From NCBI RefSeq assembly GCF_014698145.1, contig NZ_JACJSM010000001.1, positions 216,633 to 280,632 of the forward strand: DNA of 64,000 nucleotides, read 5' to 3'. Under the pieces are notes generated by a model. That model ran no database searches. It was not told the origin of the DNA and saw only the letters and a program-made list of their open reading frames with translations. Position 1 is the first letter of the stretch. The number at the start of each line of letters is the position of its first letter. The DNA comes from Oscillatoria sp. FACHB-1406. GTDB taxonomy: Bacteria; Cyanobacteriota; Cyanobacteriia; Cyanobacteriales; Spirulinaceae. Shown piece after piece: positions 57,886 through 63,683 of the stretch. Both the position numbers and the translations under genes were made by a program.

Positions 57886-58140
57886 AGTCAGACTTCGAGC
57901 AGTTGTTGCTCGGCAAAGGATATCAAAACCTTGCTATGTTTCGATGTTACCTCGGGGCGATCGAACGGTTTCTCATTCAGCAAGATTTCGTAAGGATGCG
58001 ATCGCAACACTTACAGCGAAATCCAGCACTTTTAGTAAAGTTTTCCAGTACGACAGCGCCGCGCACCGTAAAGCGGCTCCGGAGCGCGATCGCACTTTCA
58101 AAATTTATCCTATACTTTGGTTAGTCTCTGCTGCGAAGGT

Positions 58141-58290
58141 ATGGCCGCGATCGATAACTCCGAACAATTCCTCGACGATTTCTACAACGCCTGCGATCCT
58201 TTTGAACCGCTTCCCGCAGGCGATTCGGGGAAAAAAATTGCTCTCAAAAATCGAATTAATACATTAGCTGAATTGGGTCGATTGAAATAA
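58141..58290 (+). CDS. unlisted 49-aa ORF (MAAIDNSEQFLDDFYNACDPFEPLPAGDSGKKIALKNRINTLAELGRLK), possible gene fragment
   Basis: Own translation. Below the ORF-track length cutoff. Followed by an AT-rich non-coding stretch. Confidence 0.25.
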   Translation: MAAIDNSEQFLDDFYNACDPFEPLPAGDSGKKIALKNRINTLAELGRLK

Positions 58291-58392: not shown

Positions 58393-58728
58393 TTAAGCTA
58401 CTCCAAAATCCGTGTAAGCTCTAACGTAGGGAATTTGAAAACCTAAAATAATATCCTCTCGCGCCACCCCCATTTCGACTAACTCCCTGCCGGGTTCTGC
58501 TTCAGTTGCATTCTCTTGAATCCAAATCTTGCCATCTTTAAGATCGAAGTGCATAGTGCAACTATGAATTCGACGATTTCCCTGCCAACCCACGTCCATG
58601 ATGAGATAGCGATCGCGCTCCCGATCGATGATAGCCTGTACCTCAATCTCTCCACTATTGGGAGCTACTTCTGAATATTTTATTAGCAATTTTTCAAGGT
58701 ATTGACGATAGCAGTCTAACTTATCCAT
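58393..58728 (-). CDS. xisI: XisI (fdxN-element excision controlling factor-like)
   Basis: 111 aa. MDKLDCYRQYLEKLL...DRYLIMDVGWQG...HFDLKDGKIWIQEN is typical XisI. Overlaps xisH by 13 nt. Confidence 0.8.
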   Translation of the reverse strand: MDKLDCYRQYLEKLLIKYSEVAPNSGEIEVQAIIDRERDRYLIMDVGWQGNRRIHSCTMHFDLKDGKIWIQENATEAEPGRELVEMGVAREDIILGFQIPYVRAYTDFGVA

Positions 58729-59132
58729 CTGACAATTTCCTCCAGTATCGGATCGTACACAAGTAATCGAACTTGATACCGTTGCACGGAAGCCTGTAAA
58801 AACTCGCGCTCGAAAAGTGATTCGTAGATTGCGACAGGAACAGCTAAATACAGTACGCGATCGCGATCGCTAAAATCCAAAGCCAGCTTGTAATTGAGAA
58901 ACTGACCCAATGCAGTATGGTAAGCATTGACGGAAGATTCTTCCAAAAAGCTTTTAACCTCGACCGCTATTTTTTAGCGACCTTTCTCTGCTCCTATTAA
59001 GCACTCTGCACCCAAATCGATCTCAAGCTTAACACTTCCGACTTCTAGTTTAAGAGGGTCATCTGTAATTATCCACTCCTCCTTTTGTAACCCTTTTTTT
59101 ACACAAAAGTGGAAGCGATCGCGAACTGCCAT
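58716..59132 (-). pseudogene. xisH: xisH interrupted by an in-frame TAA
   Basis: Own translation from ATG 59130-59132 gives MAVRDRFHFCVKKGLQKEEWIITDDPLKLEVGSVKLEIDLGAECLIGAEKGR, then a stop (TAA at 58974-58976). The same frame continues KIAVEVKSFLEESSVNAYH...VYDPILEEIVRWIS, which is track ORF 58716..58946. Confidence 0.7.
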
Positions 59133-59295
59133 AATTTCGATTGTCTATAACCTTACTTATTTTACACAGCGCTCGCGGCGACCGCCTGCATTTTACGGAA
59201 TGTAGCTCGTGCGACTGAAGCGCGATTATACCTTAAGGTTCTCGGCTCTATAATAAAAGCGATGCCTCGTCCCTTCCTCAGAGATATCTGCAAAA

Positions 59296-60090
59296 ATGTA
59301 CCAACCCGACTCCCCTGCATCGCCGCTCAAAGTTCTGCCGACGATGTACGATTTACCCAGTGAAAATCCAGAGGAACCCGGAGTGCCTGACACTTTCCAC
59401 GTTTTTCAACCTCGCCTGCTTGACGACACCTTCTCTCCAAGCAATTATCCGCCAGAACGCATCTTTACCGGCAGCGATGTCAATCTCTACTACGATTCCA
59501 ATAACACGCTTTGGTACAAGCGCCCCGATTGGTACGCCGTCTTGGGAGTGCCGCGCCTTTATCAAGAACGGGATTTGCGGTTGAGTTATGTGGTGTGGGA
59601 TGAAAAAGTCACTCCGTTTATCGTCGTTGAGTTACTTTCTCCCGGAACCGAAAAGGAAGACTTAGGGCGAACTTTGCGAGATGCAAAATCGCCGCCGACG
59701 AAATGGGAAGTTTACGAACAGATTCTCAAGATTCCCTACTATGCAATCTTCGATCGCTACAGCCAAATGTTCCAACCCTTTAAACTGGAAGAAGGGGGTT
59801 ACAAAGCGATAAAAGTGGGGGACAGCGAACGTTTTTGGCTGCCAGAGATTCAGTTAGGGCTGGGGATTTGGGAAGGAGAGTATGACGGAATCGAACATCG
59901 TTGGTTGCGCTGGTATGATGCGGAAGGCTGGGTACTCACGCCGATGGAACGAGAACGGAAACGGGCTGAAAGCGAACGACAGCGCGCAGAACAGCAGCAG
60001 CAACTTGCTGAAAGCGAACGACAGCGCGCAGAACGCTTAATAGCGCAATTAAGAGCGTTAGGAATCGAACCGGATGGGGAGAATGGGTAA
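59296..60090 (+). CDS. Uma2-family (DUF820) restriction-endonuclease-fold protein with C-terminal ESERQRAE repeats
   Basis: MYDLPSENPEEPGVPDTFHVFQPRLL N-terminus is typical of cyanobacterial Uma2 proteins. Repeated AESERQRAE near the C-terminus. Confidence 0.75.
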   Translation: MYQPDSPASPLKVLPTMYDLPSENPEEPGVPDTFHVFQPRLLDDTFSPSNYPPERIFTGSDVNLYYDSNNTLWYKRPDWYAVLGVPRLYQERDLRLSYVVWDEKVTPFIVVELLSPGTEKEDLGRTLRDAKSPPTKWEVYEQILKIPYYAIFDRYSQMFQPFKLEEGGYKAIKVGDSERFWLPEIQLGLGIWEGEYDGIEHRWLRWYDAEGWVLTPMERERKRAESERQRAEQQQQLAESERQRAERLIAQLRALGIEPDGENG

Positions 60091-60388
60091 AGCTTGCGGA
60101 ATTTTAAGCTCGAGATTGTAACACTATTTAGCACAGCAAGCTAAATCGAGTTGCATTGAGTTGGAGAGAGAGGCAAAAGAATAGCCGGTGAGAAATCCAG
60201 CCCCTTTAGGTAGGGTTTTCCTGCACGACAACGCACGCGATCGCGCCGTACAATAACGGTGTGGCGAATTCACAAGGCAGAATGTCGAACTCAATCGCCT
60301 TTCGGACATAGGATCATTCTGCCAGTCAATTGGATTCTTGCCCGTGCAGAACCCGCTTTATAGATAGTCCTAACGACCATTCCAACCT

Positions 60389-63255: not shown

Positions 63256-63346
63256 TACTATGAATAAGAGTCCCGAAAAATAAATAAAAACAAACCGTAA
63301 ACAAAGTCTTTATAATCCCTCCAAACTTGTACGAGAGCGATAAAGA

Positions 63347-63683
63347 TATGGAATACAAAGGATATACAGCTTCAATTGAAATTGATGAAGATGTTAGTAG
63401 TTTATTCGGTACAGTTTTAGGGATAAAAGATGTTATTACGTTTCAAGGTAACACCGTTAATGAGTTGCGCCACGCCTTTCAAGACTCGGTAGACGATTAC
63501 TTGGAATGGTGTGAAGAATTAGGTGAAAAACCGGATAAACCCTTTTCAGGAAAGCTCCCCTTTCGGACAACGCCAGAAATTCATCGTCAGATTTATATGG
63601 CGGCAAGGAAAGCGAATAAAAGTATTAATTCCTGGATGGATGAAGTGGTGGCAAAGGCAGCGAAAGAGGCAATTAAGGAGTAG
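63347..63683 (+). CDS. HicB-family antitoxin-like protein (no HicA partner found)
   Basis: MEYKGYTASIEIDEDVSSLFGTVLGIKDVITFQGNTVNELRHAFQDSVDDYLEWCEE...KLPFRTTPEIHRQIYMAARKANKSINSW is a typical HicB N-domain plus RHH-like tail. Confidence 0.65.

Follow-up and report, generated by a model that had tools for sequence, protein, structure and literature searches.

An in-frame stop in xisH beside an intact xisI in Oscillatoria sp. FACHB-1406: a probable recent pseudogene of the XisH family

What does an in-frame TAA mean in a gene that is otherwise conserved from end to end? The question is raised by xisH in a 64,000-nucleotide stretch of the genome of Oscillatoria sp. FACHB-1406 (contig NZ_JACJSM010000001.1, positions 216,633 to 280,632; hereafter the window), where xisH and xisI form an overlapping pair on the minus strand beside a gene of the Uma2/DUF820 family. 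A preliminary description of this DNA had left four options for the stop, namely a nonsense-mutated pseudogene, a sequencing error, a split gene and programmed readthrough. Our analysis favors the first of these: with a probability of about 75%, xisH is a real and recent nonsense-mutated pseudogene and a case of ordinary gene decay. A sequencing error keeps a small share of the probability, and the split gene and programmed readthrough are disfavored. The gene adds a further decayed copy to an abundant cyanobacterial family, and the public annotation holds no protein for this copy. The stop alone matters little, and it calls for caution against reading such a codon as a sign of recoding or of an excision element.

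The interrupted xisH frame and the codon affected

The xisH frame runs on the minus strand from the ATG at 59132 to the TAG at 58716-58718 and is broken once, by the TAA at 58974-58976, which is codon 53. Translation of 58713-59132 on this strand reads MAVRDRF...GAEKGR*KIAVEVKSF...VRWIS*, confirming the in-frame stop, the clean N-terminal half and the continuation of the same frame to the normal C-terminus reported in the preliminary description. Masking the stop as X gives a product of 138 residues that matches Pfam family PF08814 over model positions 1-134 of 134 (E=4.8e-50; 169.6 bits against a curated cut-off of 25). Because this match runs from end to end across the stop, the two halves belong to one gene in one frame rather than to a chance pair of open reading frames (ORFs). 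The PDB entries 2okf and 2inb, both solved structures of XisH, match this product at E=1e-39. Besides codon 53, the frame is free of stops and frameshifts, and the window copy keeps each of the 42 columns that are invariant in the XisH family. Since the TAA leaves no uninterrupted XisH ORF of ~138 aa, the locus is best classed as a XisH-family pseudogene and not as a functional member.

Glutamine is the residue most simply lost at codon 53. The preliminary description had proposed an alignment to an intact XisH to find the mutated codon, and the closest intact XisH in a search of 5.8 billion clustered proteins was P0001/L001 from a JGI metagenome contig (86% amino acid and 83% nucleotide identity). 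Around the stop, the DNA alignment is free of gaps and sets GGT CGC TAA AAA in the window against GAC AAC CAA AAA in L001. As L001 carries CAA, the simplest history would be a single C-to-T transition that changed Gln CAA to TAA. A genome scan with one genome per species gave 80 loci with xisH relatives among the matches listed (L002-L081), which contain 85 full-length xisH genes; all counts of genomic copies below refer to these listed loci. At column 53, 2okf has Gln and 2inb has Glu; an unbiased protein search shows Glu most often, and Gln occupies the column in 72 of the 85 genomic copies, a count biased by the scan pattern 'QKIAVEVK' itself. This position varies and is not critical for function.

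One further relative stood close to the window. The Logan contig L082 (SRR21279718) is 91% identical over 550 nt, with the coding part closer still, and was the only near-identical relative found; it begins 116 nt upstream of xisI, so codon 53 falls outside its span. Exact-protein contig look-ups returned no match for the window XisI, the window Uma2 or the Uma2 paralogue P0121. A degenerate DNA pattern over the stop region gave zero matches in the metagenome_contigs collection and missed even the contig of L001, from which we take this collection to be without close relatives. In genome_contigs, the best of the matches listed was 64% identical.

The position of the stop relative to the predicted active site bears directly on the fate of the protein. 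XisH has been assigned to the PD-(D/E)XK fold (PMC3424549). Asp39, Glu58 and Lys60 are invariant across 20 aligned homologues, and they are kept in 84/85, 85/85 and 85/85 genomic copies, respectively. The window frame encodes all three, and the stop falls between Asp39 and the Glu58-x-Lys60 motif. The 52-aa N-terminal fragment consequently carries Asp39 only, without Glu58-x-Lys60 and without the C-terminal two thirds of the fold.

xisI is intact, and XisI matches PF08869 over model positions 1-110 of 110 (E=1.1e-41). As had been described, the two genes share 13 nt at the xisH end (58716-58728), and L001 has an overlap of the same length. A GGAGG motif lies 10 nt upstream of the xisI ATG, within the 3' end of xisH, and is also conserved in L001. 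With this Shine-Dalgarno-like sequence of its own, translation of xisI is still plausible despite the stop in xisH, and the gene is plausibly expressed as an orphan. In the genomic copies, xisI stands directly downstream of xisH, abutting or overlapping it, in 85 of 87 cases. The similarity between L001 and the window is limited to 59135-58395, that is, to the two genes, and the similarity of L082 extends from xisH to ~58298, ~95 nt beyond the xisI stop, before the sequences diverge completely. These limits indicate that xisHI behaves as a compact unit set in differing neighborhoods. No second copy of xisH, xisI or Uma2 was found in the window.

Age of the lesion and the readings of the stop

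The sequence beyond the stop has not drifted. Nei-Gojobori estimates between the window and L001, at dS values of 0.6-1.1, put dN/dS for xisH at 0.070 before the stop (codons 1-52) and at 0.084 after it (codons 54-138), with 0.089 for xisI. The low ratio past the stop, the lack of a second stop and the lack of a frameshift mean that the lesion is either very recent on the dS timescale or an artefact. The stop is present in the deposited assembly. GenBank protein numbers run consecutively through MBD2576306 (ClpP), MBD2576307 (DnaJ-domain protein), MBD2576308 (P-type ATPase), MBD2576309 (57-aa hypothetical protein), MBD2576310 (XisI), MBD2576311 (Uma2) and MBD2576312 (ClpB). XisI and Uma2 also bear the accessions WP_190712470 and WP_190712471. 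No number stands between XisI and Uma2, and xisH has no protein; the numbering fits a treatment of xisH as a pseudogene by the GenBank annotators.

The choice between a real mutation and an artefact is the most delicate one. If the TAA came from an error in sequencing or assembly, or from a polymorphism of the culture that entered the consensus, xisH would be intact in the organism. Such an error would leave one substitution in a frame that is perfectly conserved elsewhere, with dN/dS as low after the stop as before it and all 42 family columns in place. Several points weigh against a true pseudogene: an error, too, would leave selection past the stop unrelaxed; a wrong base call, a faulty consensus or the fixing of a minority allele in the assembly could produce the same TAA; the direction of the mutation is read from one close homologue, and most of the distant homologues have Glu (GAA/GAG) at column 53, which would require a G-to-T change instead; and the pseudogene status in GenBank is read from accession numbering. 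We nevertheless regard an error of any of these kinds as unlikely. The change is a substitution and not an indel, although it lies beside an A6 run, and consensus substitution errors are generally rarer than homopolymer indels. Of the 30 larger ORFs of the window compared with Pfam, none matched its main family in obviously truncated form, and this speaks against an assembly of low quality. A true nonsense allele would not be unusual either, as xisH alleles with a single stop make up ~6% of the copies elsewhere. We therefore infer a real mutation rather than an assembly error, at about the same 75%.

Two further readings would keep an active protein in spite of the stop. If the gene were split but functional, an active protein would assemble from the 52-aa N-terminal peptide and a second, C-terminal one restarted at the TTG at 58946. 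The restart codon opens a 76-codon ORF that reaches the normal C-terminus, a GAGG motif stands 11 nt upstream of it, and xisH downstream of the stop shows no decay. The preliminary description had given the second half its own Met (MEESS); this codon is in fact the TTG at 58944-58946, Leu63 of the frame, and it lies beyond the catalytic Glu58 and Lys60. The codons after the stop are AAA ATA GCG GTC GAG GTT AAA AGC TTT TTG, and codon 63 is the first ATG, GTG or TTG past the TAA in the window sequence. A restarted product would therefore lose the invariant Glu58 and Lys60, and an active split enzyme is very unlikely. The GAGG motif is itself made of the conserved Val-Glu-Val codons found in all homologues. 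Neither the 52-aa N-terminal fragment nor the 76-aa TTG-started fragment occurs in a protein collection of ~15 billion sequences, the best 120 XisH homologues are all single chains of 130-146 aa, and the stops of other xisH copies lie at unrelated positions. Programmed readthrough or recoding of the TAA, giving a low and regulated amount of full-length XisH, is less probable still. It would agree with the identical frame before and after the stop and with the conserved downstream sequence, but the closest relative has the sense codon CAA at codon 53. Exactly one in-frame stop is present in 5 of the 85 full-length genomic xisH copies, each beside an intact xisI, and these stops occupy five different codons and use three stop-codon types: TAG at codon 41 (L050), TGA at codon 50 (L006), and TAA at codons 108 (L076), 117 (L047) and 118 (L026). 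None of the 85 copies has a stop at codon 53. Such scatter is what random decay produces in a large family and is not the mark of recoding. Additionally, the 64-kb window holds no tRNA gene and hence no suppressor tRNA, and no Rfam element or notable RNA structure was detected near xisH. The TAA is followed by A; in bacteria, termination at UAA-A is efficient and such a context is not leaky.

Recent nonsense mutation of a single gene would thus account for the locus. Oscillatoria sp. FACHB-1406 would carry a free-standing two-gene cassette in its core chromosome, with XisH as a PD-(D/E)XK nuclease-fold protein and XisI as its partner. One point mutation, most simply C to T, would recently have turned the Gln codon CAA at position 53 into TAA. 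Translation would then end after 52 residues and yield no functional XisH, orphan expression of the intact xisI from its own GGAGG would be possible, and the neighboring Uma2 gene would be unrelated to the pair.

Unequal decay of xisH and xisI

The stops found in the genomic copies fall on one member of the pair. Internal stops occur in 5/85 xisH and in 0/86 xisI genes (Fisher p=0.029; p=0.05 in a per-codon binomial test that allows for gene length); with the window copy added, the counts become 6/86 and 0/87 (Fisher p=0.014). These figures weakly suggest that the nuclease-fold partner XisH may be lost preferentially. Orthologous xisH genes of Komarekiella delphini-convector and K. atlantica (L026:3001-3417 and L047:3001-3417) are 97% identical and carry independent stops at adjacent codons (CAA TAA in L026 and TAA CAA in L047), with xisI intact in both. 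In the L047 copy, Tyr moreover replaces the catalytic Asp39.

An asymmetry of this kind would be expected if xisHI pairs outside heterocyst excision elements were toxin/immunity pairs serving in addiction or defence, a proposal that we consider speculative and probably not correct. A costly XisH nuclease would then be inactivated repeatedly by nonsense mutations, XisI would be kept as an orphan protector, and FACHB-1406 would supply a fresh case. The independent adjacent-codon stops in the two Komarekiella species hint in this direction, as does a published Thiomargarita genome with 4 xisH and 7 xisI genes. The pairs resemble decaying type II toxin-antitoxin pairs in consisting of two small overlapping genes scattered among housekeeping genes, in having stops in the nuclease-fold member with the partner spared, and in counting PIN and Gp49/HigB-like genes among their neighbors. 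The asymmetry is only marginally significant. PADLOC and NCBIfam profiles matched neither XisH nor XisI, and Uma2 gave only weak matches to PDC-S03 (E=0.002). The literature searched contained no paper that names xisHI a toxin-antitoxin system. xisHI is widespread without xisF, and its role there, as well as in non-heterocystous organisms, has been stated as unknown (PMC2674450, PMC4853749). If the asymmetry holds in a phylogenetically controlled survey, it would offer a first functional handle on these recombinase-less pairs.

Surroundings of the pair and the excision-element question

Together with xisH and xisI, the Uma2 gene had been linked in the preliminary description to excision elements and to expansion in filamentous cyanobacteria. 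Large family sizes, with 675 XisH matches at E<=1e-10 and 4179 Uma2 matches at E<=1e-20, are compatible with the expansion. The link to excision elements is not supported, as no recombinase was found among 30 of the larger ORFs of the window and Uma2 adjoins xisHI in only 2-3 of ~75 loci. The features of the region are collected in Table 1.

Table 1. Features of the xisHI-Uma2 region, in window coordinates
Feature	Position	Strand	Basis
xisH, probable pseudogene frame, 138 codons + TAG, single interruption	58716..59132	-	translation; PF08814; homologues
Premature TAA, codon 53; CAA (Gln) in closest homologue	58974..58976	-	DNA alignment with L001
Asp39 codon, PD-(D/E)XK acidic residue, upstream of stop	59016..59018	-	invariant column
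Glu58-Val59-Lys60 codons (ExK motif), downstream of stop	58953..58961	-	invariant columns E58, K60
TTG (Leu63 in frame), first canonical start codon past stop	58944..58946	-	ORF list 58716..58946
xisI, intact, 111 aa	58393..58728	-	PF08869; exact match MBD2576310.1
Uma2/DUF820 gene, intact, 264 aa	59296..60090	+	PF05685; exact match MBD2576311.1
42-nt tandem duplication in Uma2 C-terminal tail, encoding repeated AESERQRAE	59947..60030	+	repeat search, 81% identity
Divergent intergenic region xisH/Uma2, 163 bp	59133..59295	.	coordinates
57-aa hypothetical ORF between P-type ATPase gene and xisI, convergent with xisI	58117..58290	+	exact match MBD2576309.1
Direct repeat, left copy	58018..58063	+	local alignment
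Direct repeat, right copy, between Uma2 and clpB	60192..60239	+	local alignment

In Nostoc PCC 7120, xisH and xisI are required for excision of the fdxN element (PMC4874684). The window copy is similar to the XisH of this element (Anabaena/Nostoc PCC 7120) in its full-length PF08814 match, in D39, E58 and K60, and in the 13-nt overlap with xisI; its frame is broken at codon 53. The fdxN element combines XisF, XisH and XisI, whereas 30 of the larger ORFs of the window include no recombinase of the XisF type, and no target gene near the pair is evidently interrupted. The window XisI likewise resembles the XisI family, a proposed recombination directionality factor, in its intact full-length match and in the purifying selection acting on it, but it stands here without a functional XisH partner and without a nearby recombinase whose direction it could set. 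Oscillatoria is a non-heterocystous genus.

The wider neighborhood consists of housekeeping genes. Scanning 30 of the larger ORFs of the window against Pfam detected no recombinase, integrase or transposase, including the Resolvase and Recombinase domains. The families found comprised FtsZ, UvrC, an aminoacyl-tRNA synthetase, AdhE, a hybrid-cluster protein, PsbO, a sigma factor, ClpP/ClpR, DnaJ, a P-type ATPase, ClpB and HicB, and ClpP/ClpR, DnaJ, the P-type ATPase and ClpB are the neighbors of xisHI-Uma2. A census of 75 listed xisHI loci showed heterogeneous immediate neighbors, such as tRNA methyltransferases, periplasmic binding proteins and TPR proteins. It also included 4 PIN-domain genes, 3 further xisH genes and 2 Gp49-like genes, and no recombinase family appeared among its top 25 families.

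The description of the Uma2 gene itself was accurate as regards family and tail. The protein matches PF05685 at E=3.2e-14 (53.2 bits against a curated cut-off of 27), and its C-terminal ESERQRAE repeats correspond to the 42-nt duplication, whose copies lie at 59947-59988 and 59989-60030. An ERQRAE...LRALGIEPD tail is common to many cyanobacterial Uma2 relatives, with variable copy number. The gap to xisH, given earlier as 170 bp, is somewhat shorter (Table 1) and separates divergently transcribed genes. Within it, the minus strand has a TATAAT at 59225-59230, a putative promoter that the consensus scan did not flag. The window protein thus shares the family match and the ERQRAE tail of its clade with other Uma2/DUF820 proteins, which have a putative restriction-endonuclease fold, but it shows no conserved linkage to xisHI: Uma2 is the upstream neighbor of xisHI in 2 of the 75 loci of the census and in 3 of 81 listed loci in a tblastn check, and its closest homologues (66-70% identity) occupy unrelated contexts.

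The inspection of the flanks for an excision element or its scar, which had been proposed with the preliminary description, revealed a direct repeat. This imperfect repeat of ~47 nt has 38 matching positions and two 1-nt gaps, occurs in only two copies in the window, and brackets a 2.2-kb block containing a small ORF, xisI, xisH and Uma2. Its local alignment score is 47, whereas 1000 dinucleotide shuffles gave 20.4 on average (sd 2.35) and never more than 32. No recombinase lies within the block, no gene is evidently interrupted, and the ATPase and ClpB genes on its two sides are of full length. There was no Rfam match around the xisH locus or the direct repeat, and the folds of the repeat copies were no more stable than those of shuffled sequences. 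The repeat may be the scar of an insertion, may mark an att-like site or may have arisen by duplication of a regulatory segment. In a search for an empty site, with the ATPase gene abutting clpB, the nearest metagenomic clpB loci were only 70-78% identical and had unrelated upstream genes; the ClpB cluster members P0315-P0321 proved to be unrelated fragments of 30-50 aa and were set aside. The small ORF of the block (MBD2576309.1) has no Pfam match and forms a singleton cluster. Its ...FYNACDPFEPLPAGD... stretch presumably resembles the N-terminus of larger cyanobacterial ATPase-type proteins, and the ORF may be a gene remnant.

Several observations concern clpB and its surroundings. Of 9 metagenomic cyanobacterial clpB loci, 3 have a Uma2 gene immediately upstream of clpB and on its strand, as does the window. 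The proteins of these genes (L083:2663-3403, L086:5049-5858 and L087:2996-3835) are only 20-35% identical to the window Uma2, and the arrangement may represent recurrent adjacency of Uma2 and clpB rather than shared ancestry. In the metagenome-assembled genome SRP290908_co2_197 (L006:1-3414), the xisH with TGA at codon 50 is preceded, at a distance of 1.9 kb, by the 3' end of a clpB orthologue; the arrangement differs from that of the window and is probably a coincidence. On another metagenomic cyanobacterial contig, a gene upstream of clpB encodes an RtcB ligase that carries both an intein and an HNH domain (L085:2242-3978, minus strand). Just downstream of clpB in the window, at 63327-63683 on the plus strand, is a HicB-family antitoxin-like ORF (PF05534, E=7e-18) for which no partner was identified. 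The HIP1 octamer GCGATCGC occurs in 92 copies in the 64-kb window, at 49% G+C, with several copies within xisH and xisI; such abundance is typical of cyanobacteria.

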